NCBI GenBank assembly: GCA_028717245.1
Contig: JAQUOD010000001.1
Coordinates: forward strand, 85,514 to 149,513
DNA length: 64,000 nt
Origin: Candidatus Omnitrophota bacterium
Lineage (GTDB): Bacteria > Omnitrophota > Gorgyraeia > Gygaellales > Profunditerraquicolaceae
Reading direction: 5' to 3'
The notes under the pieces: generated by a model
Told to the model about the DNA's origin: nothing
What the model saw: only the letters and a program-made list of their open reading frames with translations
The model's database searches: none
Shown: piece by piece, positions 6,694 to 62,482 of the stretch
Position numbering within the stretch: position 1 is the first letter of the stretch
Layout: each line of letters begins with the position of its first letter
Position numbers and translations under genes: made by a program

Positions 6694-8040
6694 CTATCTC
6701 CTTCCCCTGATGCGTCCACCCTTGATAAACCCTTCATAGTGGTGCATGAGAAGGTGTGATTCTATCTGTTTTATCGTATCCAATACGACGCCTACTACAA
6801 TTAATATTCCTGTGCCGCCGAAAAAAGAAGCCACCAAGTAAGGAATCTTAAGCCAGGCCATAATAAAATCCGGAAAGATCGCGATAAAGGCGATAAAAGA
6901 CGCTCCGGCTAAGGTTATGCGCGTCATCACGTAATCCAGGAATTCGGTAGTGGAAGTCCCCGGCCTGATCCCCGGGATAAAGCCGCCGTATTTTTTCATA
7001 TTTTCGGATAAATCCACGGGATTAAACACGATAGCGGTATAGAAATAGCAGAAGAATATAATCAATAACGCATATACAGCCGTATAGAGCAGGTGCCCTC
7101 TTACGAGCCCCTGGGCCCAGCTTTGAAATGTGGGGTTAGGTATGAATGAAGCCAAAGTAGCGGGAAAAAGGATTATTGATTGGGCAAAGATTATGGCAAT
7201 AACGCCGGAGGTGTCTACTTTTAAAGGTATGTAAGTGCTCTGGCCGCCGAAAATCTTTCTTCCTACAACCCTGCGCGCATACTGCACGGGGATCTTTCTT
7301 TGCCCCTGGGTAATGAGGATTACCGCAAAGACTACGCCTACCAAGAGAGCTGCCATAATCAACAAGGTAAAAGGCTGGATTTGCCTGCGGCCAGGCGAGA
7401 AAGGCGAAATCAATATGAATAATTGGTGCATTGCCGGCCAGAGCCGGGAAATAATACCGCAGGTGATGACTAAAGAGATGCCGTTACCGATACCCCTTTC
7501 CTGTATCTGTTCGCCTAACCACATAATAAATATCGTGCCGGTAGTTAAAGTAAGGACGGTTAATATGCGAAAACCCCATCCGGGGTATACGACTATCCTT
7601 AAACCTTCAAAACGCGCGGGATTCTCAAGCCACAGGGCGATAAAGAAGGATTGTATTAAAGAAAGCGCTACTGTCCCGTAACGGGTGTATTGATTTATTT
7701 TTTCATAACCGGCCTTGCCCTCCTTGGCTAGTTTTTCTAAGGCGGGTATGACCGCGGTTAAGAGCTGCAGTATGATAGAGCTGGATATGTAAGGCATGAT
7801 CCCCAAGGCAAAAATAGTAAGCCTTTCCATTGCCCCGCCGGAGAACATATTGATGATACCGAAGATTGTTCCGCCCTGGGTTTTGGCCATGCGATTGAAG
7901 AATTCGGCCAGTGCCGCTCCGTCGATACCGGGGGTAGGTATATAGCAGCCTATGCGGTAGACAATAATAAGGACTGCTGTTACGATAATCCTTTTTTTTA
8001 GGTCGGGGATCTTAAAGGAATTAACCAGCGCGCTAAACAC
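6694..8040 (-). CDS. secY: preprotein translocase subunit SecY
   Basis: 448 aa multi-TM, position between rplO and adk. Confidence 0.9.
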   Translation of the reverse strand: MFSALVNSFKIPDLKKRIIVTAVLIIVYRIGCYIPTPGIDGAALAEFFNRMAKTQGGTIFGIINMFSGGAMERLTIFALGIMPYISSSIILQLLTAVIPALEKLAKEGKAGYEKINQYTRYGTVALSLIQSFFIALWLENPARFEGLRIVVYPGWGFRILTVLTLTTGTIFIMWLGEQIQERGIGNGISLVITCGIISRLWPAMHQLFILISPFSPGRRQIQPFTLLIMAALLVGVVFAVILITQGQRKIPVQYARRVVGRKIFGGQSTYIPLKVDTSGVIAIIFAQSIILFPATLASFIPNPTFQSWAQGLVRGHLLYTAVYALLIIFFCYFYTAIVFNPVDLSENMKKYGGFIPGIRPGTSTTEFLDYVMTRITLAGASFIAFIAIFPDFIMAWLKIPYLVASFFGGTGILIVVGVVLDTIKQIESHLLMHHYEGFIKGGRIRGRR

Positions 8041-11504: not shown

Positions 11505-11541
11505 AATTACGAGTTACTAGTTACGAGCTTACGAGTTACTG
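11505..11541 (-). repeat. tandem heptamer array TTACGAG/TTACTAG x5 in rplN-rplX spacer
   Basis: aattacgag ttactag ttacgag c ttacgag ttactg. Confidence 0.8.
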
Positions 11542-28609: not shown

Positions 28610-28620
28610 ATTGTCTATCA

Positions 28621-28722
28621 GGTTACGTAAGGTTGCCTAAGGTTACGTAAGGTTCCATAAAGCTGCCTTTTTTAAGGTAACCTTATGTAACGTTATGGAA
28701 CCCCATGGAACGTTAGGTAACA
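28621..28722 (-). repeat. inverted arrays of 10-mers GGTTNNNTAA forming a ~45-bp imperfect hairpin in rplL-rpoB spacer
   Basis: ggttacgtaa ggttgcctaa ggttacgtaa ggttccataa ... ggtaacctta tgtaacgtta tggaacccca tggaacgtta ggtaac. Confidence 0.8.
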
Positions 28723-29149: not shown

Positions 29150-29221
29150 GTATCAAAGTATCAGGTATCAAGGTATCAAAGTTTTTTCTTTGACACTTTT
29201 GACACATTGATACTTTGACAC
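29150..29221 (-). repeat. GTATCAA/TTGACAC inverted octamer arrays (hairpin, loop ttttttc) in rplJ-rplL spacer, directly upstream of rplL RBS
   Basis: gtatcaaagtatcaggtatcaaggtatcaaag-ttttttc-tttgacacttttgacacattgatactttgacac. Confidence 0.85.
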
Positions 29222-29225
29222 TATT

Positions 29226-29753
29226 TTAGTTTTCTTTCTTCTTCTTTATCTGCTCTAAACAATAAACTAATTTTCTTAAATTCCCCTTAAGAACCATTAC
29301 TAAACCAAAGATAGGTGATTTTAAAGCCATTACAGCCTGATATCTCAAAATTTCCTTACAGGGAAGCCGGGCCATCCTTTCGATATCTTTTTTATCCAGG
29401 ATCTTGTCTTCTAAAAATCCTGCTTCTAATTTTAACTGTTCATGCTCACGGAAAAAGCCATATAACACGCGCGAGGTATCTACTGGTTCTTCTTTGGCAA
29501 ATACTAAACCGCAGGGCCCCTCTACGGACTTAATTAAACCTTCTAAACCGGAGTCTTTCAGGGCGCGCCTGGCTACGCTATTTTTGGTCACGAAGAGCTT
29601 GGCCTTTGCGCCTTTTAGCGATTTCCTCAGGGTAGTCAGATCCGGACTGGATAATTTCGAATATCCCACGATAAAAAGGCCCTGCGATTCCTTAAAATAT
29701 TTTTTAAGGCGGTTTTCCAGAGTTTCCCTGAATACTAAACCCAGTTTTTTCAT
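29226..29753 (-). CDS. rplJ: 50S ribosomal protein L10
   Basis: 175 aa. Confidence 0.9.
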   Translation of the reverse strand: MKKLGLVFRETLENRLKKYFKESQGLFIVGYSKLSSPDLTTLRKSLKGAKAKLFVTKNSVARRALKDSGLEGLIKSVEGPCGLVFAKEEPVDTSRVLYGFFREHEQLKLEAGFLEDKILDKKDIERMARLPCKEILRYQAVMALKSPIFGLVMVLKGNLRKLVYCLEQIKKKKEN

Positions 29754-31963: not shown

Positions 31964-32035
31964 AGTGTCAAGGTGTCAAAGTATCAGAGTGTCAAAGTAA
32001 AACTTTGATACCTTGATACATGATACTTTGATACA
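31964..32035 (-). repeat. GTGTCAA/TTGATAC inverted octamer arrays (hairpin) between rpmG and tRNA-Thr
   Basis: gtgtcaaggtgtcaaagtatcagagtgtcaaag-taaaac-tttgataccttgatacatgatactttgatac. Confidence 0.85.
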
Positions 32036-32044
32036 GCTTTTACA

Positions 32045-32117
32045 AGCTGGAGACGGGAATCGAACCCGTGACCCCGTCCTTACCAAGGACGTGCTCTACC
32101 GACTGAGCTACTCCAGC
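32045..32117 (-). tRNA. tRNA-Thr (anticodon GGT), no encoded CCA end
   Basis: GCTGGAGTAGCTCAGTCGGTAGAGCACGTCCTTGGTAAGGACG...GGTTCGATTCC...CTCCAGCT. Confidence 0.9.
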
Positions 32118-33362: not shown

Positions 33363-34300
33363 CTGTATGCGAGCATGGTTGCCTCAATTAATGATGCGGG
33401 ATTGGCCAACCGGTAGTTTTTTGCGATATCAAAGGCAGTCCCGTGTAAAGGAGATGTTCTGATAAAAGGAATGCCCAATGTCAAATTTACACCGCTAAAG
33501 CCGGCTGATACCTTCAAAGGGATTAATGCCTGGTCGTGATACATGGCAATCATGCAGTCGTATTGTTTTTGCAGTGTTTTTAAGGCTGCTATATCCGCCC
33601 CCTGCGGCCCGGCTATGCTTATGCCTTTTATTTTTTTTCTTAAAAGCGACAGAACAGGTTTAATCACCCTATTTTCTTCCTTTCCTATCAGCCCATTATC
33701 AGAGGCGTGCGGATTAAGCCCGCACAATACGATGCGCGGGTTTCTTGTACGGAAGAGTTTTTTTAAGGATTCATAAGTTAAAATTACGGTTTGAAATATT
33801 GCTTTTTTGCTTAAGCATAGGGGGACGTCTTTTAAAGCAATGTGGCGCGTAACCAGGGTGATTTTTAATTTTTTATTTAAAAGCATCATGGCAAAATTTT
33901 TCGTATTTGTAACAGAGGCCAAATATTCCGTATGCCCGCTGAAATTTTTAAACCCCGCCAAACTCACTGCCTCCTTGGATATAGGGCAGGTAACCAGAGA
34001 ATCTATCTTGTTATGATTAATTAAATCCATTGCCTTATCCAGGTATTCTATGGATGCCTTGCCATATTCAGCCCGCATTTCACCGAATCTAAAATTTTTA
34101 CGTGCTACATTATTTAAATCTATAAATTTTATATCTGACACCTGACACCTGGCACCTGACACCTGATTAAATACCCACCTATCTCCTATGATAACAAAAT
34201 CAGCCAAACCTCTTAATTGAGGTATTGCTTTAGCGATAATAGCAGGGCCTACACCCGCCGGGTCGCCTATGGTAATGCCGATTTTTATTTTATTATGCAT
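33335..34300 (-). CDS. pdxA: 4-hydroxythreonine-4-phosphate dehydrogenase
   Basis: IGITIGDPAGVGP..., HTEY, synteny surA-pdxA-rsmA. Confidence 0.9.
   Translation of the reverse strand: MHNKIKIGITIGDPAGVGPAIIAKAIPQLRGLADFVIIGDRWVFNQVSGARCQVSDIKFIDLNNVARKNFRFGEMRAEYGKASIEYLDKAMDLINHNKIDSLVTCPISKEAVSLAGFKNFSGHTEYLASVTNTKNFAMMLLNKKLKITLVTRHIALKDVPLCLSKKAIFQTVILTYESLKKLFRTRNPRIVLCGLNPHASDNGLIGKEENRVIKPVLSLLRKKIKGISIAGPQGADIAALKTLQKQYDCMIAMYHDQALIPLKVSAGFSGVNLTLGIPFIRTSPLHGTAFDIAKNYRLANPASLIEATMLAYRCTLNQKKD
34135..34165 (-). repeat. in-frame tandem heptamer tract CACCTGA/CACCTGG x4 inside pdxA (encodes periodic QVSGARCQVS)
   Basis: ctgacacctgacacctggcacctgacacctg. Confidence 0.8.
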
Positions 34301-34310
34301 TTATTTGTTT

Positions 34311-34392
34311 CCGTAATCCGTAATTGGTAATTCGTAATTCTTATTTTATTTTAAAAAATTACGATTTACGATTTATGAATTACGATTTACGG
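34311..34392 (-). repeat. inverted heptamer arrays CCGTAAT x4 / ATTTACG x5 (hairpin) in pdxA-surA spacer
   Basis: ccgtaatccgtaattggtaattcgtaatt ... aattacgatttacgatttatgaattacgatttacgg. Confidence 0.85.
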
Positions 34393-34417: not shown

Positions 34418-35365
34418 TTAATCTTGCATAATTTTAATATAAGACTGCTTTTTGAGTTCGTCCAACCACGTTGCTAATGCCTCTTGCATCTTTTGGTCAA
34501 AAAGGAAGGTATAAATATCACCCTGGGCCCCAGAGATACTTTGCTGCCGGGGGGGTATTATATTATCCAGTTTAAAAATATAATATTGTTCTTCTATTTT
34601 GACCGGTGCGGAGATTTCACCTACCTTCAACCTGAATATTTTTTCTTCGATGTCTTTTCTCAACTGCCCATTCCCTGCCCCGCTCATTTTATTTACAGCC
34701 AGGAAATATTTACTGGCGACATCCTGAAATTCCTGCCCATTCCTTAAATCATTAAAGACTTTGCTCGCCAGGTCCTCTTCACCGGTATTTATGGATTCAA
34801 ATTCGCGCTGTTCGGGTAGTTTAAATTTATCGATGTTTTGCTGATAGAAATCGGTGACTTCTGCGGGATTAACCAGAATCTTGCTCTTTATCTTTATTTC
34901 GATAATAGTATACATAAGCAGCTGGTCTCTTATCTTTGATTCTAAGTCTGCCTGCACCAGCCCTTGCTTAGCCAGGGAAGTTTGAAAATCCTTCTCTGAA
35001 TCGTAACGCCTGCGGATATCGTCTATCCTAGCTTTGATCCTGCTCTCGTCTATTCTGATATTGCTTTTTTTGGCTTCCTGTAAAATAATGCGGTCTTCAA
35101 TAAGCTTGTCCATTAAATCCAGCTTTATAGATTGCATTTTACTTTCCAGGCTTCTCCCTTTAAATTCTCCCATTAATTGTACGCGCGTAAAATTAACGAA
35201 GTCGTCTAAGTCTTTCTGGGTGATGACATCGTTATTCACGATAGCGACGATTTTGTCTTCGGCGTGTAAGTTGTAAGCTGTAAGTTGTAAGCTGTAAGCA
35301 ATGGAAAAAAGCAAAAATAATGATATTTTTAAACCCTTTAACCCTTGGTTTTTGATTTTATCCAT
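34418..35365 (-). CDS. surA: SurA-like periplasmic chaperone/peptidyl-prolyl isomerase (signal peptide, short form)
   Basis: 315 aa, N-terminal signal peptide; position upstream of pdxA-rsmA as in E. coli. Confidence 0.6.
   Translation of the reverse strand: MDKIKNQGLKGLKISLFLLFSIAYSLQLTAYNLHAEDKIVAIVNNDVITQKDLDDFVNFTRVQLMGEFKGRSLESKMQSIKLDLMDKLIEDRIILQEAKKSNIRIDESRIKARIDDIRRRYDSEKDFQTSLAKQGLVQADLESKIRDQLLMYTIIEIKIKSKILVNPAEVTDFYQQNIDKFKLPEQREFESINTGEEDLASKVFNDLRNGQEFQDVASKYFLAVNKMSGAGNGQLRKDIEEKIFRLKVGEISAPVKIEEQYYIFKLDNIIPPRQQSISGAQGDIYTFLFDQKMQEALATWLDELKKQSYIKIMQD
35264..35299 (-). repeat. in-frame tandem heptamer tract (C/T)TGTAAG x5 inside surA signal-peptide region (encodes AYSLQLTAYNLH)
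   Basis: gtgtaag ttgtaag ctgtaag ttgtaag ctgtaag c. Confidence 0.8.
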
Positions 35366-40062: not shown

Positions 40063-40125
40063 GTATCAAAGTGTCAGGTATCAGGGTATCAAAGTTTTTT
40101 CTTTGATACTTTGATACTTTGACAC
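40063..40125 (-). repeat. GTATCAA/TTGATAC inverted octamer arrays (hairpin, loop ttttttc), paralogue of the 29150-29221 element; abuts trpE stop and rpsP RBS
   Basis: gtatcaaagtgtcaggtatcagggtatcaaag-ttttttc-tttgatactttgatactttgacac. Confidence 0.85.
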
Positions 40126-41612
40126 TATTTAACAATTGCCTCTATTAATGCCTTTGCCTTGTTTATAGATTCCTGGTATTCATTTTTTGGCACCGAATCA
40201 GCGACGATACCGGCACCTGCCTGAATATATGCCATCCCATCTTTAATAATTACGGTCCGAAGGGTTATGCAGGTATCCATATTATGCGAAAAGCTGAAAT
40301 ACCCTACGCATCCGGCATAGGGCCCGCGCCTTAAATTTTCCAGCTCGTCTATAATTTCCATAGCGCGTATCTTAGGGCTGCCGCTTACTGTCCCGGCGGG
40401 AAAACAGGCCCTTAAAACATCGTAGATATTATATCTCTTATCCAAAATACCCTCAACTTCACTGACTATATGCATTACGTGGGAGTATCTTTCTATGGAC
40501 ATAAACTCACTCACCGCTACCTTGCCTTTTTTACAGACCTTGCCTAAATCATTCCTGCCTAAATCTACCAGCATCAGGTGTTCTGCGCGTTCTTTCTTAT
40601 CTTCAAGAAGCTCCTTTTCTAATTGCTTGTCTTCTTTTTCATTTTTCCCGCGGGGCCGGGTACCGGCAATAGGCCGGGTGCGGGCAATGCCGTCTTCACA
40701 GCGTACCAGTATCTCAGGAGAAGAGCCGACTAAGGTAACTTCCTTTAATTTCAAAAAAAACATATAGGGAGAAGGGTTCAGGCTCCTTAAATCCCTGTAG
40801 ATATCGAAGGGGTCTTTATCTATCTTTATTTCAAAGCGCTGCGACAATACTGTCTGGATGATATCCCCCTTTTTTATATAATCCCTCGCCTTATTTACTA
40901 TTTTACAAAATTCCTTTTCTTTAAAGTTAGAAATTACTTTTATGCTGCGCTTACCAGTATCATTACGCTTTGCTTTCTTGAGCAAGGGTTTCTTCAGTTC
41001 ATTGCATATGGAATCTATTTTTTTCAGCGCCTGATAATAAATCTGCGTTTTTTTAACCCGGGGGATTTTTTTATGCGCCGGCAGGATAATGTTAACAATG
41101 ATCTTTATGGTATGGTTAATATGGTCAAAGACTAGGATGCTATCGGTAAGTATAAAGACGGAATCGGCGATCTTTAGGTCATCCGGATTTCTATCGGGCA
41201 GGTCCTCAAAGAACCTTACCATATCATAAGCCATGAAACCCACGAGCCCTCCGTAAAAGCGCGGTAGTTCTTTAATCCGGGCGGCCTTAAAATCCTGCAT
41301 GATTTTTTTAATTTCATCCAGGGGGTCATTGCGGGTAACAAAATGCCTGGCTGAACTTCTTGCAGGATAAATGACCCGGACATCCCTGCCTTTACTTCTA
41401 AAAATAAGCGCGGGGTTACTCCCTAAGAAAGAATAGCGGGCGATCTTTTCCTGTCCTTCTACGGACTCAAGGAGAAAGGCATAATCGCCTTTTTTTATTT
41501 TTAAGAAGGCAGACACAGGCGTATCTAAATCCGCGCTGATCTCCTGATAAACCGGAATAAGATTATATTTTTTAGATAGTTCCAGAAATTCTTTTAGTGA
41601 TGGATAGTACAT
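40125..41612 (-). CDS. trpE: anthranilate synthase component I
   Basis: TPVSAFLKI, LLESVEGQEKIARYSF motif. Confidence 0.8.
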   Translation of the reverse strand: MYYPSLKEFLELSKKYNLIPVYQEISADLDTPVSAFLKIKKGDYAFLLESVEGQEKIARYSFLGSNPALIFRSKGRDVRVIYPARSSARHFVTRNDPLDEIKKIMQDFKAARIKELPRFYGGLVGFMAYDMVRFFEDLPDRNPDDLKIADSVFILTDSILVFDHINHTIKIIVNIILPAHKKIPRVKKTQIYYQALKKIDSICNELKKPLLKKAKRNDTGKRSIKVISNFKEKEFCKIVNKARDYIKKGDIIQTVLSQRFEIKIDKDPFDIYRDLRSLNPSPYMFFLKLKEVTLVGSSPEILVRCEDGIARTRPIAGTRPRGKNEKEDKQLEKELLEDKKERAEHLMLVDLGRNDLGKVCKKGKVAVSEFMSIERYSHVMHIVSEVEGILDKRYNIYDVLRACFPAGTVSGSPKIRAMEIIDELENLRRGPYAGCVGYFSFSHNMDTCITLRTVIIKDGMAYIQAGAGIVADSVPKNEYQESINKAKALIEAIVK

Positions 41613-41622
41613 ATTGGGCTTT

Positions 41623-41676
41623 GAGCTTTAAGTTGTAAGCCATAAGCTTAAAGCTTAGAGCTTACAGCTTATAGTC
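41623..41676 (-). repeat. heptamer array AGCTTAN (consecutive agcttaa agcttag agcttac agcttat) with inverted partner; overlaps hisI stop codon
   Basis: gagctttaagttgtaagccataagcttaaagcttagagcttacagcttatag. Confidence 0.85.
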
Positions 41677-42018
41677 TATTTTTCTATAAAAGCACGATCT
41701 ATTTCCCGTATGGCAGGCAACGCCTGACTGGCGCACCTTAATCAGCAACGCATCCATATCGCAATCGTAAGCCACTGACTTGACAAGCTGGTAATTACCC
41801 GACGTTGCGCCTTTAATCCAGTAAACTTTGCGCGAGCGCGACCAGAAGCAGGTCTTGCCTGTTTTCAACGTCCTCTTTAGAGAAAATATATTCATATAAG
41901 CGAGCATGAGCACTTCACCGCTTCTATAGTCCTGTATTATCGCGGGGATTAACCCCTGTTTATCCAGCTTTAATTTTTTTAAACTAAATCCTTTTTTCAT
42001 TTTTATAGGCGCACGCAT
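41662..42018 (-). CDS. hisI: phosphoribosyl-AMP cyclohydrolase
   Basis: GLIPAIIQD...LMLAYMN...YWIKGATSG...[10 protein letters not shown]. Confidence 0.9.
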
Positions 42019-42758
42019 ACCCCTTTTTCTTTCAGATATTCCTTTACCTGCCTGACGGTATATTCCTGGTAATGAAAGATGGAGGCTGCCAAGCTTGCAG
42101 AAGCCTCTGTTTTAGCCAGGACATCATAAAAATGCTCCGGTTTTCCTGCCCCACCGGAAGCTATCACCGGAATGTTCACCTTTTGCGCGACAGCCCTGGT
42201 TAAAGGTAAATCGTAACCGTCTTTGGTGCCGTCATAGTCCATACTTGTCAGGAGTATCTCACCTGCACCCAGTTCCTCTGCTTTTTTTGCCCACTCCAGG
42301 GCATCTAATTCCGCAGAGGTCCTGCCACCGTTAATATAAACCTGCCAGCTATTGTCCTGTTTCTTTGCGTCTATCGCTACCACGATACACTGACTGCCGA
42401 ATTTTCTGGAAGCATCGCTGATTAAATCCGGGCATTTTACCGCCGCGGTATTTATGGAAACTTTATCCGCGCCTGCATTTAAAAGGTCGCGGATATCTTC
42501 AATATCCCTGATTCCGCCGCCTACGGTAAAAGGCATAAATATATTCTCGGCGATCTTCTCGACCAAACCAATAAGCGTCTTCCTGTTCTCAAAACTGGCA
42601 GTAATATCTAAAAATACTAGCTCATCTGCCTGCTGCTGGTCGTAAATCTTAGCTACTTCAACAGGGTCGCCCGCGTCCTTTAAGGCCACAAACCTCATAC
42701 CTTTAACCACCCTGTTTTCTTTGATATCCAGGCAGGGGATAATACGTTTCGTTAACAT
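42003..42758 (-). CDS. hisF: imidazole glycerol phosphate synthase cyclase subunit
   Basis: [13 protein letters not shown]... Confidence 0.9.
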
Positions 42759-42765
42759 TTATTTT

Positions 42766-42818
42766 GCTTTAAGTTGTAAGCTATAAGCTGTAAGCTTAAA
42801 GCATAAAGCTTATAGCTA
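42766..42818 (-). repeat. tandem heptamer array GCTNTAA x7; overlaps lipoprotein stop codon, 8 nt upstream of hisF start
   Basis: gctttaa gttgtaa gctataa gctgtaa gcttaaa gcataaa gcttata gcta. Confidence 0.85.
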
Positions 42819-43268
42819 TTTAACTTTCTTATCCAAATACCCTTTCAGCAAGTCCCAGGTTTTATTACCCATTTTACCATCTGGACTGAGATTATTTGCT
42901 TTCTGAAAAGCCCTTATTGCTTCACGGGTCTGCTTACCCATACGGCCATCAACAGATCCGGGATTATAGCCGGCATTAGTTAAAGCAACCTGTATCTGTT
43001 TTATAGTTGGCCGTGATTTTGTTTCTTGGCTGACCTTCTTTTTACCTGTTGCTTTTACCAGGCTTTCTTTCTGCTCAACAGTACTAGTTAAGGTGTCCCT
43101 TAGGCCGCCGATCTCTTGGTCTTTGGCTTCAATTTCTGCCTGTAAAACCGAAATCTGATTTTTTAATCCCTGAATTTCCAAATCCTTATCTTTGCGGCCG
43201 GTAGCGCATCCACCCAGAGAAATTAGAAAAATAGAACAGACGAAAAAAATAACTACCCTTTTAAACAT
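42816..43268 (-). CDS. lipoprotein with coiled-coil and C-terminal peptidoglycan-binding (PG_binding_1-like) domain
   Basis: signal peptide + lipobox LGGC; ...GYNPGSVDGRMGKQTREAIRAFQKANNLSPDGKMGNKTWDLL. Confidence 0.7.
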   Translation of the reverse strand: MFKRVVIFFVCSIFLISLGGCATGRKDKDLEIQGLKNQISVLQAEIEAKDQEIGGLRDTLTSTVEQKESLVKATGKKKVSQETKSRPTIKQIQVALTNAGYNPGSVDGRMGKQTREAIRAFQKANNLSPDGKMGNKTWDLLKGYLDKKVK

Positions 43269-43290: not shown

Positions 43291-44010
43291 TTATAATATT
43301 TTTATGGCCTCAGCTAAAGTAAATTTTCCTTCATATAAGGCCTTGCCTATAATTACACCTACTAATTCTTTTTTATCCAGCAGCCTAAGTTTAGATATAT
43401 CAGCCAGAGAAGAAATCCCGCCTGAAGCAATCACCCCTAAGCCTGTTTCCTTAATTATACTCTTTATGCCTTTTATATTAGGTCCCTTTAAAGTCCCGTC
43501 CTTGAGGATATCAGTATAAATTACCTGCTTAAACCCTATTTGTTTTAAGCGGCATGCCAACTTTAAGATATCTACGCTTGCGGAATTACTCTGCCAACCC
43601 TTGGCTAAGACACGGTTAGCCTTAGCATCAAGGCTAACGATAATCTTATCTTTAAATTTCTTAAAGGATTTTTCCAGAAAACCCTTATCTTCTACTGCCT
43701 TAGTGCCCAAAATTATACGCCAGATACCGCAATCAAGCAATGTTTTTATTATTATTTCATTTCTTACGCCGCCGCCGAATTGAACGGGTACGTCTATCTC
43801 TTTTACTATCTTTTTTACTATATCCAGGTTTTTCGGCTTACCGCTTATCGCGCCGTCTAAGTCTACTATATGGATTAACCTTGCTCCCTGTTTCTGCCAG
43901 TGCCGGGCAGTCTTTAGGGGGTCGCGGGAATAAACCTTTTTGTCAAATCTTCCCTGCGTGTATCTGACTACACACCCATCTTTTAAATCTATAGCGGGAA
44001 TGATTAGCAT
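43291..44010 (-). CDS. hisA: ProFAR isomerase
   Basis: MLIIPAIDLKDGCVVR... Confidence 0.9.
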   Translation of the reverse strand: MLIIPAIDLKDGCVVRYTQGRFDKKVYSRDPLKTARHWQKQGARLIHIVDLDGAISGKPKNLDIVKKIVKEIDVPVQFGGGVRNEIIIKTLLDCGIWRIILGTKAVEDKGFLEKSFKKFKDKIIVSLDAKANRVLAKGWQSNSASVDILKLACRLKQIGFKQVIYTDILKDGTLKGPNIKGIKSIIKETGLGVIASGGISSLADISKLRLLDKKELVGVIIGKALYEGKFTLAEAIKIL

Positions 44011-44639
44011 AATTCTACAAAATTTTTCAGTATTTTTAAACCGGTTTCCTGGCTTTTCTCAGGATGAAACTGCACGCCGTATATATTCTCCCGCCAAAGA
44101 ACCGGGCTAAAGCTAATCCCGTATTCAGTAGTAGCAGCGATGATATCTTTATCCTTGGGTTGCGGATAATAGGAATGGCAGAAATATACGTAAGCATTAT
44201 CCGGTATATCTTTTAACAGGGGGCATTCCTTTGACACCTTGACACCCTGACACCTTGATACTATTTTCAACTGGTTCCAGCCCATATGCGGGACCTTCAA
44301 ATTGCCTTTAATTTTAAATTTCTTTACCTCGCCTTTTAATATCCCTAATCCTTTTATCCCTTTTGCTTCATCGCTTCTCTCAAAGAGAAGCTGCATCCCT
44401 AAACAGATACCCAGAAATATCTTTTTTGCCTTAATATGCTCCTTTAGCGCCGTCAACAGATCCTGTTTCTTTAATTCTGCTACAGCATCGGCGAATGCCC
44501 CTACCCCCGGCAATACTACCTTATCACAAACCTTGATATCTGCGGGCTTGTTGGTAACTATTGTCTTTGCGCCCATAGACTCTAAGGCCTTTTGCACGCT
44601 ATGAATATTTCCCATGCCGTAGTCAATTATGGCAATCAT
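44004..44639 (-). CDS. hisH: imidazole glycerol phosphate synthase glutaminase subunit
   Basis: MIAIIDYGMGNIHSV..., GICLGMQ, HSY. Confidence 0.9.
   Translation of the reverse strand: MIAIIDYGMGNIHSVQKALESMGAKTIVTNKPADIKVCDKVVLPGVGAFADAVAELKKQDLLTALKEHIKAKKIFLGICLGMQLLFERSDEAKGIKGLGILKGEVKKFKIKGNLKVPHMGWNQLKIVSRCQGVKVSKECPLLKDIPDNAYVYFCHSYYPQPKDKDIIAATTEYGISFSPVLWRENIYGVQFHPEKSQETGLKILKNFVELC
44229..44262 (-). repeat. in-frame octamer tract TTGACACC x3 inside hisH (encodes SRCQGVKVSKE; about 9-aa insertion relative to HisH homologs)
   Basis: ctttgacaccttgacaccctgacaccttgatactatttt. Confidence 0.8.
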
Positions 44640-46482: not shown

Positions 46483-49097
46483 TTTAGTTCCCTGATAATC
46501 TCTTTAAGTTTCTTGAATGCCTGCGGAAAATTCTCCGGTTTATTTCCCCCTGCCTGGGCAAAATCCTTCCTGCCTCCGCCGCTACCGCCGATTTCCGGGG
46601 CGATTGCTTTTATTATCTTAGCGCTATCAATATCTAAAATTTGCGTATTTAAATTTGTACCCGTAACCAACAGGGCCCCTCCAACGGAAGTAGTTGTCCC
46701 TAAGGCAACGATAACGCTTTTTTCCTTCGCTTTGATTAAATCCACGGCCTTTCTTAAGGCGTCCATATCCTGGCCTTCAATAAAACGGGCGATAACATTA
46801 ATACCGTTAATAATTTCTCCCTCTTTAATATAATTATCTATTGAGGCTCTAAGCATATCCGTCTTGCGGTAACTTAGCTTTTTTTCCAGTTCTTTTATCT
46901 GAAATAGCTTCTTCTCTAATTCCTGGGTTATCTTTTGGCTAGGGACATTTAAAAGAGAAGAAATATCAGCCAGGATATTCTCTTCTTCCTTAAGCGCCTT
47001 ATAGGCACAATCTCCTGTAAGCGCTTCTATCCTTCTTATCCCGCTGGCTATCGACCCCTCGTTAACTATCTTAAAGAGCCCGATTTGGCCGGTGCATTCA
47101 AGGTGTGTTCCGCCGCAGAGTTCTTTAGAGAAATCTCCGATTGCTACCATACGCACCTTTTCTGCGTATTTCTCCGTAAAGAATGCCAATGCCCCTTGTC
47201 TTTTAGCCTCTGCGAGGGTCAGCGTCTTTGCCTTCAAGCACGTATTATTTACTATGTAGTTATTGACTAATCCTTCTATTCTATCCAACTGTTCCCTAGT
47301 CACATCCTTAAAATGCGTAAAGTCAAAACGTAATCTATCTTCGGCTACTAATGAACCTTGCTGTTGCACATGCGCTCCCAAAATTACGCGTAATGCTGCC
47401 TGCAATAGGTGTGTGGCAGTATGATTTCTGGCTATGGATAGCCTGCGTTTAATATCCACACAGGACATTAACTCATCTGTGGTTCTAAAACTTCCGGTTT
47501 TTACCCTTCCTTTATGCACAATAACATTATCAAATTTACGGGTACCGGTTATCTGAAAGACATTCTTCCCTTTTATCAATTCACCCGTATCGCCTACCTG
47601 GCCGCCGGATTCAGGGTAAAGAACGGTTTTATCTAAAATTATCCGGGCCTCTTCGCCCGCGCTTATTTTTTTTACCGGAGTATTATCTTTAATAATCTTG
47701 ATAACCTTTGCCTTTGTCTCGTATTTGGAGTAACCCAGAAAACTAGTCTTAGCGCCTGCTAAATGCAATTCTTTAATATCAAAGACATCGCCTTTCATCC
47801 GACTCTGTAATTTAGAACGGTTTTTCTGCTCTCCTAATTCCTTATCAAATGCCTCCTGCGAGAAATTTATGCCGGCTTTCTCCAGCCAACCCCTGGTTAA
47901 CTCTAAAGGTATCCCGTAGGTATCGTACAACTGAAAGGCAAGCCTGCCGGCCCTTTGCGCGTCCTGCTTATTACTAAAACCCTTAAATTTTTCTTCAAAC
48001 AAAACGCTGCTAGAATCTAAAGTAGAAATAAAATTATTCTCTTCAGCCAGAATAATCTGGGAGATATTTTCTTTACGTTTATCCAACTCTGGATATGGCA
48101 ACTTCATAATATCGGATAAAAGAGGGGTTAATTTATAAAGAAAAGGTTTAGCTATCCCTAACGCCCTTAAATGCAGCATGCTTTTACGGATTATTTTTCT
48201 TACTACATACCCGCGGCCTTCATTAGAAGGCAATACGCCATCATAAATAGCAAAAACAATGGCACGTATATGGTCACTAACAGCATAAATAAATTCCTTA
48301 TCTGACACTTTGACACTTTGACACTTTGACACTATCTCTTTCACTATGGGTTGGAATAAATCCGTTTCAAAATTATTCGGCACCCCCTGCATAACCGCTG
48401 CCAATCTTTCCAGCCCCATACCCGTGTCAATATTCTTTTTGGGTAAAGGTTCTAATTTTCCGTCTGCTTTGCGGTTAAATTGTGTAAACACTAAATTCCA
48501 TATTTCCGGGAACCTGCCGCAACTGCAAGCCGGGCCGCAGCCAGGCTTCCCGCAACCTGCGCCCTGGTCAAAGAATATCTCAGAACATGGCCCGCATGGC
48601 CCATTTGGGCCGTTAGCTTTGGCTTCTGATGGCCAGAAATTTTCTTTATCGCCTAATTTTACGATTTTATTTACCGGAACCTTTATTTTATCTTTCCATA
48701 TGTTATACGATTCATCATCGTCTTTATATACAGAAACCCAGAGTTTATCTTCTTTAATCTTAAGCTCTTCGGTCAGGAACTCCCACGCCCAGGTAATTGC
48801 CTCTTCCTTAAAATAGTCCCCGAAAGAAAAATTTCCCAGCATCTCAAAAAAGGTATGGTGAGACGGGGTCTTGCCTACCTTATCTAAATCATCGGTGCGC
48901 AGGCAGCGCTGGCTGCTGGCAGCGCGGCTAAAACCGGTTAAATGCCCCAGGAATTGCCTCTTGAATTGGTTCATTCCGGCAGGAGTAAATAATACGGTAG
49001 GGTCGTCCTTGGGGATAAGCGAATCGCTTTCTACGATTTTATGCTTTTTAGCTTTAAAAAAGATGGGGAATTTTTCTCTTAATAAATCCGCTTTCAT
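46479..49097 (-). CDS. alaS: alanine--tRNA ligase
   Basis: start MKADLLREKF at 49097 overlapping recX stop (ATGA..TAA); ORF-track start 49154 is an extension. Confidence 0.9.
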   Translation of the reverse strand: MKADLLREKFPIFFKAKKHKIVESDSLIPKDDPTVLFTPAGMNQFKRQFLGHLTGFSRAASSQRCLRTDDLDKVGKTPSHHTFFEMLGNFSFGDYFKEEAITWAWEFLTEELKIKEDKLWVSVYKDDDESYNIWKDKIKVPVNKIVKLGDKENFWPSEAKANGPNGPCGPCSEIFFDQGAGCGKPGCGPACSCGRFPEIWNLVFTQFNRKADGKLEPLPKKNIDTGMGLERLAAVMQGVPNNFETDLFQPIVKEIVSKCQSVKVSDKEFIYAVSDHIRAIVFAIYDGVLPSNEGRGYVVRKIIRKSMLHLRALGIAKPFLYKLTPLLSDIMKLPYPELDKRKENISQIILAEENNFISTLDSSSVLFEEKFKGFSNKQDAQRAGRLAFQLYDTYGIPLELTRGWLEKAGINFSQEAFDKELGEQKNRSKLQSRMKGDVFDIKELHLAGAKTSFLGYSKYETKAKVIKIIKDNTPVKKISAGEEARIILDKTVLYPESGGQVGDTGELIKGKNVFQITGTRKFDNVIVHKGRVKTGSFRTTDELMSCVDIKRRLSIARNHTATHLLQAALRVILGAHVQQQGSLVAEDRLRFDFTHFKDVTREQLDRIEGLVNNYIVNNTCLKAKTLTLAEAKRQGALAFFTEKYAEKVRMVAIGDFSKELCGGTHLECTGQIGLFKIVNEGSIASGIRRIEALTGDCAYKALKEEENILADISSLLNVPSQKITQELEKKLFQIKELEKKLSYRKTDMLRASIDNYIKEGEIINGINVIARFIEGQDMDALRKAVDLIKAKEKSVIVALGTTTSVGGALLVTGTNLNTQILDIDSAKIIKAIAPEIGGSGGGRKDFAQAGGNKPENFPQAFKKLKEIIRELK
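48302..48333 (-). repeat. in-frame octamer tract TTGACACT x4 inside alaS (encodes SKCQSVKVSDKE)
   Basis: ctgacactttgacactttgacactttgacact. Confidence 0.8.
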
Positions 49098-61224: not shown

Positions 61225-61260
61225 CGGCTTATAGCTTACAACTTATGGCTTACGGCTATT
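61225..61260 (-). repeat. tandem heptamer array (G/A)GCTTA(T/C) x5 overlapping glgC stop codon
   Basis: cggcttat agcttac aacttat ggcttac ggctatt. Confidence 0.8.
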
Positions 61261-62482
61261 TAATTTCTGCCCCCTTCTCCACTACCACGATGCCCGATTT
61301 GGTAACATAAAACCTTTTTCTATCCTCTTCAAGATCATAGCCGATTACCATACCTTGCGGGATATGCACATCCTTATCAATAATGGCCTTTTTTATCTTG
61401 GCGTATCTGGCTACATTGACGCCTTCCATAATTATAGAATCATAAACCTCTGAATAGCTGTGGATTCTTACATCCGGAGAAAGTATAGAACGCTGAACTT
61501 TGCCTCCGCTGACAATGCATCCTCCGGCAATCAGTGAATCCAGCACCAGCCCGACGCGGCCGGTGATCTGATCCCCGGAAAAGACTGTCTTAGCCAGGGG
61601 AAACTGCTCTTGATAGGTCCTGATCGACCAGTCTTTATCGTAAAGATTAAATACCGGGTCAACCTGCACTAAATCCATATTTGCTTCATAATAAGCATCA
61701 ATAGTTCCGATATCCCGCCAATACTGCGCCTCTTTTTTATTCTCATCAACAAAATTAAAAGCAACGACCTTAAGGCCTTTTTTGAGCATCTGCGGGATGA
61801 TGTCTTTGCCGAAATCATGGGTAGAATTGTGTTTCTTAGCGTCCTGCTGCAGTTCCTCTTCCAGGACCGGATGTTTAAAAACATAGATGCCCATAGAGGC
61901 ATAGACCTTATCCTGATTCTGGGGTATGGTCTTGGGCCTTGCCGGCTTCTCCTGAAAACCGCTCACCCTGCCTATTGCGTCTACCTCTACTACGCCTAAA
62001 TGCGGGGCTTTATTTTTATCCATCTCTACCACCCCGACGGTCAAATCCGCATCAGCCTGACGATGAAAATCTATCAGGGTATAATAATTCATTTTATAGA
62101 TGTGGTCTCCGGCCAGGATTAAAACTTCATCCGGATTATCAATTTCCAGGGTATAGAGGTTTTGATAAATGGCATCGGCAGTGCCTAAATACCAGGAATC
62201 CCCTACTCTTTGTTGTGCCGGTAATAATTCGATAAACTGGCCTAACTCAGAAGGCAGGATATTCCATCCCAAACGGATGTGCCTCTGTAAAGATGCGGAC
62301 TTATATTGCGTGAGGACATAAATTTTGCGCAGCCCCGAATTGATGCAATTACTCAGGGTAAAATCAATAATCCGGTATATCCCGCCAAAAGGCACTGCGG
62401 GTTTGGTGCGGTCTTTGGTCAGGGGCAATAGCCGCTCGCCCTTACCGCCTGCCATGATAAAAGTTAAAACGCGTTTCCTCAT
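61256..62482 (-). CDS. glgC: glucose-1-phosphate adenylyltransferase
   Basis: [25 protein letters not shown]. Confidence 0.9.

Follow-up and report, generated by a model that had tools for sequence, protein, structure and literature searches.

Long simple sequence repeats with units of 5-11 nt have been described in bacteria, such as the GGGAATC repeats of Xanthomonas and Nostoc (PMC4692102) and the TAACTGA repeats of Beggiatoaceae and cyanobacteria (PMC4679880). The GGGAATC repeats show a preference for about four units (PMC4692102). The TAACTGA arrays touch or overlap the stop codon that ends the preceding gene and lie shortly before the following start codon, and their orientation inside open reading frames (ORFs) is limited by stop codons (PMC4679880). 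Repeats of this heptamer type are described as seldom found in coding DNA, or as confined to hypothetical proteins and the ends of proteins (PMC4692102, PMC4679880). Rickettsia palindromic elements (RPE) are about 150 bp long and palindromic, and encode a conserved peptide (PMC10969869). The subject of this report is a 33-nt tract inside hisH, the gene for the glutamine amidotransferase subunit of imidazole glycerol phosphate synthase, in a 64-kb stretch (64,000 nt, hereafter the window) of contig JAQUOD010000001.1 from a Candidatus Omnitrophota bacterium; this window was the coverage of the source genome. A first-pass annotation had taken the tract for one arm of a repeat element, inserted in frame as RPE are. 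By its sequence it is a heptamer/octamer simple-sequence-repeat array resembling the short tandemly repeated repetitive (STRR) heptamers of cyanobacteria, and not a Rickettsia-type palindromic element.

The tandem array in hisH

The identity of hisH was supported by a Pfam GATase match (E=1.4e-22), and an NCBI protein named HisH, from a metagenome-assembled genome (MAG) of Candidatus Omnitrophica, matched its product at 100% identity. An independent Logan assembly contig encoded the identical protein too, which rules out an assembly artefact as the source of the tract. The sequence ctttgacaccttgacaccctgacaccttgatactatttt was located at 44229-44267 on the + strand within the hisH ORF, and the translation around it was ...NQLKIVSRCQGVKVSKECPLL... 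(quoted also as ...HMGWNQLKIVSRCQGVKVSKECPLLKDIPDNAYVYFCHSY...). The ORF was intact, the tract was read in frame, and the catalytic residues Cys79, His192 and Glu194, invariant in the alignment of homologues, were kept.

Tandem Repeats Finder (TRF) placed the tract at 44231-44258 with a period of 8, 3.5 copies and 90% matches, and the exact ends of the array are ambiguous inside the repeat. Its self-folding reached -4.1 kcal/mol (z = +1.38), with 186 of 200 shuffles folding equally well or better. Neither terminal inverted repeats nor a target-site duplication was found at the tract: its flanks, AAAATA and GGAATGCCC, do not duplicate each other, and the tract itself consisted of direct repeats only. 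Since the tract is non-palindromic and lacks both of these marks, a head-to-tail 8-nt array is indicated, and the idea of an inserted RPE-like arm was abandoned.

The distance from GWN to YFCHSY was 29 residues in the HisH of the window, 20 in Vibrio HisH (4gud) and 13 in Thermotoga HisH (1gpw), which agreed with the 13-20 residues given for E. coli and Thermotoga HisH in the first-pass annotation. The insert corresponded to an alignment gap of 9 residues against 4gud and 16 against 1gpw. As outgroups, 67 diverse HisH genes of other phyla, with at most 61% identity, were taken among the matches listed in a genome-contig scan with the HisH alignment; the GWN-FxHSY distance was 19-23 residues in 66 of them, and the sole exception (29 residues) was an Omnitrophota MAG. 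Among the 120 closest homologues (66-80% identity), 80 had a short loop (e.g. NQLKVKNTSCP), 35 were longer by 7 or 8 residues and 5 had other lengths. The 15-residue loops showed a 7-residue periodicity and the 16-residue loops an 8-residue periodicity, so the excess equals three units of a 7-mer or an 8-mer. In the window the net excess over short-form HisH was 24 nt, which is 8 residues or three units; thus the extra length proposed earlier was real, but its size of about nine residues had to be corrected to eight relative to the closest short-form relatives. The claim that the tract is extra relative to ancestral HisH held, and by these comparisons the tract is an insertion relative to the ancestral gene.

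The AlphaFold2 model of the window HisH had a mean pLDDT (predicted local distance difference test) of 89.8. Residues 127-130 formed a short helix and residues 131-139 a coil; the 10-residue blocks of the insert region had pLDDT means of 86 and 75, with most of the core above 90. The model could be superposed on solved HisH structures with template modelling (TM) scores of 0.82-0.91 and a root mean square deviation of about 2 Angstrom, and in the model the fold is unperturbed by the extra loop residues. Probably three extra GTRTCAAR units added 8 low-complexity residues to the loop which follows the GWN strand, with the enzyme left intact. On balance the peptide may be regarded as a passenger, whose neutrality we infer.

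The hisH site in relatives

Arrays were present at the same codon position in the hisH genes of several related contigs. They were 100% perfect in L083 ((AGTGTCAA)x4.2), L082 ((GTCACAA)x4.3), L085 ((GTCACCAG)x3.8) and L087 ((AAAGTCA)x4.7), and in L089 an imperfect array of the 7-mer GTGTCAA was found. The short-form hisH genes of L091, L088 and L090 had no array, and L090 kept one unit-like copy, TTGTCAG. L089 and L090 were 94.6% identical over 2633 nt, with a sole hisH indel of 21 nt (3 x 7) at the array. The peptides encoded at the site varied by lineage, as VSRCQGVKVS, VTSHKSQVTS, VTRSPGHQVT and VKSQKSKVKS. Thus the orthologues did carry arrays at the same position, but with different units, and no relative with the same extra residues and no repeat was found. 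The site is a recurrent hot spot, with arrays of different units in relatives.

The length classes of HisH differed by 7-8 residues, i.e. by three units only. Frameshifted alleles were not found, with 120 of 120 HisH and 120 of 120 PdxA homologues retrieved reading through to the conserved downstream motifs. In a neighbour-joining tree made without the loop (189 columns, weakly resolved), the long and short hisH forms were interleaved. The Lys-Ile codons AAA ATA already existed in the short-form orthologue of L091, so the ACTATTTT flank is host sequence.

In L085, the hisH-internal array (7644-7673) had a reverse-complement partner, (GTGACCTG)x2.8 (7921-7942), directly after the hisH stop codon. 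This pair could form a long-range stem around the final third of the gene.

The repeat family in the window

With up to two mismatches, GACACCTTGATAC was matched 17 times in the window against 0.71 expected, and none of 100 shuffles reached 17. All matches except one fell in five clusters, at 29150, 31965, 40063, 44233 and 48304. The likeness of the hisH tract to the intergenic elements is therefore not due to chance. Compared by a hand count on the alignment with the right arm of the hairpin between rplJ and rplL, the tract was about 80% identical, the ACTATTTT end included. The earlier match of the tract to the right arm of the intergenic GTATCAA elements was thus upheld as a family likeness, but its extension over the gacactatttt flank was not, since AAA ATA are host codons in L091. 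Hexamers of the type TGAYAC/GTRTCA clustered at six loci of the window, three intergenic and three inside genes. The hisH tract belongs to this repeat family, which is rather likely to be part of a genome-wide family of short tandem arrays with units of 7-10 nt, about four units and about 30 nt.

The features of the window are listed below. The arrays were taken from TRF output, of which a stricter custom detector caught just five, and their copy numbers were 3.2-5.0. The RNA folds of the three GTRTCAAR hairpins reached -36.3 kcal/mol (z = -10.7) in the rplJ-rplL spacer, -23.2 kcal/mol (z = -4.2) next to the tRNA gene (tRNA at 32045-32117) and -26.1 kcal/mol (z = -8.1) before rpsP. The alaS tract had no structure of its own (z = -0.15). 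Rfam matched just two tRNAs in the window.

Features of the window with their positions (TRF, found in the output of Tandem Repeats Finder)
Feature	Positions	Strand	Context or source
hisH, glutamine amidotransferase subunit of imidazole glycerol phosphate synthase	44004-44639	-	intact 211-aa ORF
In-frame hisH array, four 8-nt units, sense GTATCAAG GTGTCAGG GTGTCAAG GTGTCAAAG	44229-44261	-	encodes VSRCQGVKVSK
Hairpin (GTRTCAAR)x4 - loop - (YTTGAYAC)x4	29150-29222	-	rplJ-rplL spacer; flanks L10, L7/L12
Hairpin (GTRTCAAR)x4 - loop - (YTTGAYAC)x4	31964-32035	-	between tRNA gene and putative rpmG ORF (label read from predicted protein start alone)
Hairpin (GTRTCAAR)x4 - loop - (YTTGAYAC)x4	40063-40126	-	between anthranilate-synthase-like (trpE-like) gene and rpsP
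In-frame perfect array (GTGTCAAA)x3.9 in alaS, encodes IVSKCQSVKVSD	48303-48333	-	TRF
In-frame array (CAGGTGT)x4.6 in pdxA, encodes QVSGARCQVS	34135-34166	-	TRF
In-frame array (GCTTACA)x5 in SurA-like gene, predicted signal-peptide region, encodes AYSLQLTAYNL	35265-35299	-	TRF
Hairpin of 10-nt tandem units, rplL-rpoB spacer	28620-28721	-	TRF
Hairpin of 7-nt units CGTAATT / TTACGAT, surA-pdxA spacer	34312-34391	-	TRF
Hairpin of AAGCTTA-type 7-nt units, hisI-trpE-like spacer	41616-41671	-	overlaps hisI stop codon
Hairpin of AGCTTAC / AAGCTTA 7-nt units, peptidoglycan (PG)-binding gene to hisF	42766-42817	-	upstream TAG stop adjoins array
Single intergenic array (GTAACTC)x4.6, rplN-rplX spacer	11507-11539	-	TRF
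Single intergenic array (GCCGTAA / AGCTTAC type)x4.7, glgC-like gene to GNAT gene	61225-61257	-	upstream TAG stop adjoins array

Each of the four coding arrays had intergenic counterparts in the window that were built from its unit family. A second unit family, GCTTACA, was common to the SurA-like gene and the intergenic arrays at 41644, 42766 and 61225; the SurA-like orthologue in L082 had unrelated sequence at this array site. Nine intergenic elements were counted in at most 7.0 kb of non-coding DNA and four coding arrays in 57 kb, so that the arrays of the window were at least about 18-fold denser in non-coding than in coding DNA. The genes flanking the intergenic arrays were all on the minus strand, i.e. 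co-directional. Each of the four coding arrays stood in the sole orientation without a stop codon in any frame. A directional insertion was considered for this shared orientation and ruled out; the stop codons of the opposite orientation explain it fully, and it is therefore uninformative on mechanism. In the window, no complementary array was found near hisH, alaS or pdxA.

The hairpins were examined for an asymmetry of G.U and A.C pairs as a sign that the transcribed strand is under RNA-level selection. The outcome was inconsistent, the antisense strand being the more stable one in 5 of 7, and it is a weak argument against such selection.

ATAG stood directly before about 7 of about 12 array loci of the window, those of hisH and alaS included, as the flanks were read by eye. 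On the sense strand, AATAG directly preceded many arrays, with the motif sites at 29222-29229, 40125-40130, 41671-41676, 42816-42821, 61256-61261 and 44262-44266. In three cases the TAG was the stop codon of the upstream gene, and TAG made up 10 of the 56 stop codons of the window. In metagenomic contigs, ATA was immediately upstream of 2 of the 84 GTGTCAAA arrays listed. ATAG was therefore not accepted as the boundary of a mobile element: it is enriched in the window, yet it was nearly missing from the metagenomic arrays and it belongs to host codons in hisH.

The intercistronic arrays and hairpins of other units had about four units per arm and were squeezed into the gap from the stop codon of one gene to the start codon of the following gene, frequently with no obvious Shine-Dalgarno sequence before that start. 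Nearly all genes of the window (1-64000) were on the minus strand, and the plus-strand GC skew was negative throughout, between -0.05 and -0.16. Both features agree with a role of the minus strand as leading strand over the whole window.

Arrays in pdxA, alaS and hisF

The pdxA arrays of the window and of L082 had the same boundaries and the same length of 32 nt, with different units (TCAGGTG and AAAAGTT/CAAAGTT). The same loop length was found in 90 of 120 PdxA homologues, and in those 90 the within-protein identity at offset 7 was 0.459, against 0.02-0.10 at other offsets. Meanwhile the identity between homologues at the array positions was 0.224, with 59 distinct tetrapeptides. This periodicity was measured on proteins, and the DNA level covers the window and L082. 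The units often drifted one base at a time across all units, as in QVSGVRCQVSG, QVSGIRYQVSG and QASGFRLQASG. Because 90 homologues kept the 7-residue periodicity with changing residues, the sequences indicate that the pdxA array is ancient and that its periodicity was kept by concerted evolution while the unit changed.

The alaS array sits in a variable loop and did not lengthen it, either relative to L082 or relative to the non-periodic homologues P0241 and P0274. An identical perfect array was found at the same alaS site in L139, where the flanking alaS DNA was 73% identical and hisH was of the short form. Such identity of units is unlikely under independent drift (0.73^8 gives an estimate of about 0.08, which saturation of silent sites would lower). 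A further alaS array, encoding VSNIKCQVSN, was detected in P0245 by a search with an AlaRS fragment, which covered partial proteins below 350 aa and few Omnitrophota. In L212 (3502-6111; P0244, on a 2.15-Mb contig) alaS was split into three gene calls and hisB was truncated, which is probably due to long-read indel error. From the gene coordinates, frameshifts at arrays were rejected as the cause of truncated alaS calls, as P0244 looks like a case of scattered indel error.

In hisF, in-frame arrays followed the AIDAK strand in L082 (12301-12337, (AAGCTCC)x5.3) and L085 (9935-9966, (AAGTCAC)x4.6), and the genes of the window (42003-42758) and L091 were of the short form without an array. This site is another polymorphic hot spot. 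The hisF genes of L089 (11897-12712) and L090 (1860-2675) had an array with a nested GC-rich palindrome, CCTGCCTCACCGGCAGGCAGG. GC-rich palindromes nested in arrays and translated in frame occurred in the proteins P0089, P0144, P0198, P0235 and P0225, giving the peptides PASPAGR, AEGGPA(S/C)GG and PACRTGR (SAEGGPACGG in the HisH P0089 and LAEGGPASGG in the PdxA P0144). They look like a second kind of mini-insertion, which targets the arrays.

Distribution of the unit in metagenomes

An exact scan for (GTGTCAAA)x3+G found at least 120 stretches in metagenome contigs, as a raw, uncontrolled count. The 84 arrays in the 80 listed loci included 56 with four units, 8 with three, 11 with five and 5 with six, and 24 of the 84 were inside ORFs of at least 200 codons. 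From the flanking residues, read by eye, the host proteins included AlaRS, FabD-like (GEYSALVA), IspD-like, MiaB-like and ValRS-like proteins. Among these metagenome loci (L092-L171), compound arrays with other-unit arrays beside the GTGTCAAA array were seen, for example, in L103, L104, L125, L145 and L167.

The scan matches which supplied the outgroups also served to survey arrays in other phyla. Inverted pairs of heptamer arrays, some of up to about 10 units, were observed near hisH in L010 (5419-5570, 8130-8196, 8800-8872 and 9476-9542), L017 (2671-2778), L076 (2277-2349) and L060 (11321-11409). Between them these contigs represent Anaerolineae, Planctomycetota, Salinibacter and Latescibacterota, so the hairpin-of-tandem-units architecture is widespread and not confined to Omnitrophota.

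Proposed origin of the arrays and alternative explanations

Five observations have to be accounted for: family membership, the derived state of the tract, in-frame steps of three units, recurrence at the same site and concerted evolution. The recurrent hot spot with different units and the ancient concerted pdxA arrays speak against an RPE-like insertion and point to a process of the simple-sequence-repeat type rather than transposition, and the data as a whole fit a repeat-driven DNA process better than transposition. Template switching combined with slippage is a reasonably likely mechanism for it. New sites would receive copies from existing arrays by microhomology-guided template switching or ectopic gene conversion, and such spread would account for the presence of one unit at many unrelated places as well as for the identity of the alaS arrays. 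Transient slippage or misalignment with templated repair would then keep the units of an array uniform; this upkeep is the direct-repeat counterpart of quasipalindrome template switching. Between co-directional genes the arrays would stand as inverted pairs and give long perfect hairpins. A coding array would survive only in a stop-free orientation, with a net change of three units and in a tolerant loop. Slips of one unit in either direction would be frameshifts and be purged, and slips of three units would give the long/short polymorphism among relatives.

Several points weigh against this explanation. None of the mechanism steps was observed directly. Four units cannot arise from one by simple slippage, so an ectopic donor has to be assumed. 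For L082, the hisH, hisF and pdxA units all differed and no matching intergenic copy was present within 20 kb. The short hisH forms KKVTSE and KKLSVE held one unit-like copy, and some units look locally derived; the hisH arrays of different lineages also had a common GTCA core. The judgement of gain or loss rests on the weakly resolved neighbour-joining tree of 189 columns. In addition, the four-unit preference holds in intergenic arms too, where the frame is irrelevant, and this is unexplained. Template switching with slippage also leaves unexplained the origin of the first four-unit array at a site and the ATAG before many arrays of the window.

The arrays might alternatively be true mobile elements, namely miniature inverted-repeat transposable elements (MITE), repetitive extragenic palindromic (REP) or RPE-like elements. 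The hairpins would then be non-autonomous and moved by a dedicated enzyme, e.g. a transposase of the REP-associated tyrosine transposase (RAYT)/IS200 single-strand type which reads the hairpin and a short motif, with the hisH tract as a leftover half element. Many copies with identical units at unrelated sites, a nearly constant size of about four units and the ATAG before about 7 of about 12 window loci, with three upstream TAG stops, hisH and alaS among them, would agree with this, and the ATAG resembles the GTAG which precedes REP hairpins. But the hisH and alaS copies are single-armed, without inverted ends or target duplication, the AAAATA flank pre-exists in the short-form L091, and ATA is upstream of just 2 of the 84 listed metagenomic arrays. 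Orthologous sites hold different units within identical boundaries, the units drift in concert one base at a time, and a domain scan of 18 window proteins gave no transposase-like match. A mobile element is thus unlikely. Purely local amplification of a 7-8-nt piece of ancestral hisH, with a convergent likeness to the intergenic family, could draw on the unit-like copy of the short forms (TTGTCAG in L090, KKVTSE or KIVSSV in others), on the GTCA core of the hisH arrays of different lineages and on the conserved Cys-Pro codons TGTCC, which resemble the unit. It is quite unlikely in view of the same unit at six window loci and, among metagenome contigs, in at least 120 stretches within unrelated genes, of the passage from one to four units in a single in-frame step without a simple slippage route, and of the window and L139 alaS arrays, which are identical despite 73% identical flanks.

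It is also conceivable that the arrays are selected functional elements, either periodic RNA or DNA binding sites read in steps of 7-8 nt, or arms that pair in trans or at long range to co-regulate genes, so that the hisH array would be a translated regulatory site. The pdxA periodicity and length kept across 90 homologues, the four-unit preference outside genes and the inverted partner directly after the hisH stop in L085 would suit such a role. No single reader protein fits units which differ between sites and genomes, however, and the window arrays of hisH, alaS and pdxA have no complementary array nearby. The better folding of the antisense strand in 5 of 7 hairpins and the many relatives entirely without a hisH array count against it as well, and this explanation is considered very improbable.

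A broader proposal goes beyond template switching and slippage at single sites, and is offered as a speculation with a small but real chance of being right. In Omnitrophota, and in other phyla judging from the inverted heptamer arrays in Anaerolineae, Planctomycetota, Salinibacter and Latescibacterota, an active process, replication-linked or enzymatic, might write and re-homogenise four-unit arrays of 7-8-nt units (about 30 nt) between cistrons and in frame in essential genes. If true, such a process would keep the length and periodicity of a loop site in the long term while the unit is swapped or drifts in concert. It would then act as a so far unrecognised force in the evolution of loops of conserved proteins, and the unexplained rule of 'heptamer, four copies' in the long simple sequence repeats of bacteria would find a general explanation.

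Significance and comparison with known systems

Non-triplet repeats are expected to be excluded from essential coding DNA, where a slip of one unit destroys the frame, yet they were found inside HisH, AlaRS and PdxA and in the HisF of relatives. A search of the open-access literature yielded no account of in-frame arrays of heptamers or octamers, be it for Omnitrophota or for conserved enzymes, which is not proof of novelty. If the family is genome-wide, it would offer a natural system for concerted evolution and templated mutagenesis under a reading-frame filter, and a source of mutations that insert loop residues into conserved enzymes. The family would further be a case of heptamer four-unit preference independent of G-quadruplex formation; the G-quadruplex account of this preference is inapplicable here because the units of the window are not G-rich. 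In practice, such arrays can mislead gene callers, aligners and assemblers applied to Omnitrophota MAGs.

Like RPE, the family has dispersed copies in frame in housekeeping genes, with an added peptide tolerated by the fold (PMC10969869). The hisH tract differs from RPE in its length (33 nt against about 100-150 bp), in being non-palindromic (z = +1.38) and in a peptide which varies freely between lineages. It differs from MITE in the absence of terminal inverted repeats and target-site duplication. The intergenic members of the window resemble REP elements, bacterial interspersed mosaic elements (BIME) and REPIN in being strong hairpins in operons between co-directional genes, many of them after ATAG; they differ by their tandem-unit arms, by a motif seldom seen outside the window (ATA upstream of 2 of 84 metagenomic arrays) and by single-armed coding copies. 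REP, BIME and REPIN elements are mobilised by RAYT transposases, and no RAYT (IS200/IS605-like) domain was found among the 18 window proteins scanned.

With phase-variable contingency loci the arrays have in common a non-triplet coding repeat in which a one-unit slip shifts the frame. They differ in that the hosts are essential or biosynthetic housekeeping genes and not surface or virulence genes, and in that only three-unit differences occur. According to Elhai and colleagues (2008), small dispersed repeats are reportedly nested in heptamer arrays of Nostoc; short GC-rich palindromes lie likewise within arrays of the relatives studied here, but are translated in frame inside enzymes.

In architecture the arrays come closest to STRR and long simple sequence repeats, whose 7-8-nt units likewise follow one another head to tail, chiefly between co-directional ORFs and sometimes as inverted pairs. 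The hisH tract has at least three head-to-tail copies of a unit in the range of 5-11 nt, and the favoured count of about four units, the overlap of arrays with stop codons and the copy-number difference between close relatives (three units between L089 and L090) are shared as well. In contrast to STRR, the Omnitrophota arrays stand in the middle of conserved housekeeping enzyme genes (HisH, AlaRS and PdxA, with HisF in relatives) at orthologous loop positions, change by three units, and turn over their unit in concert across the phylum.

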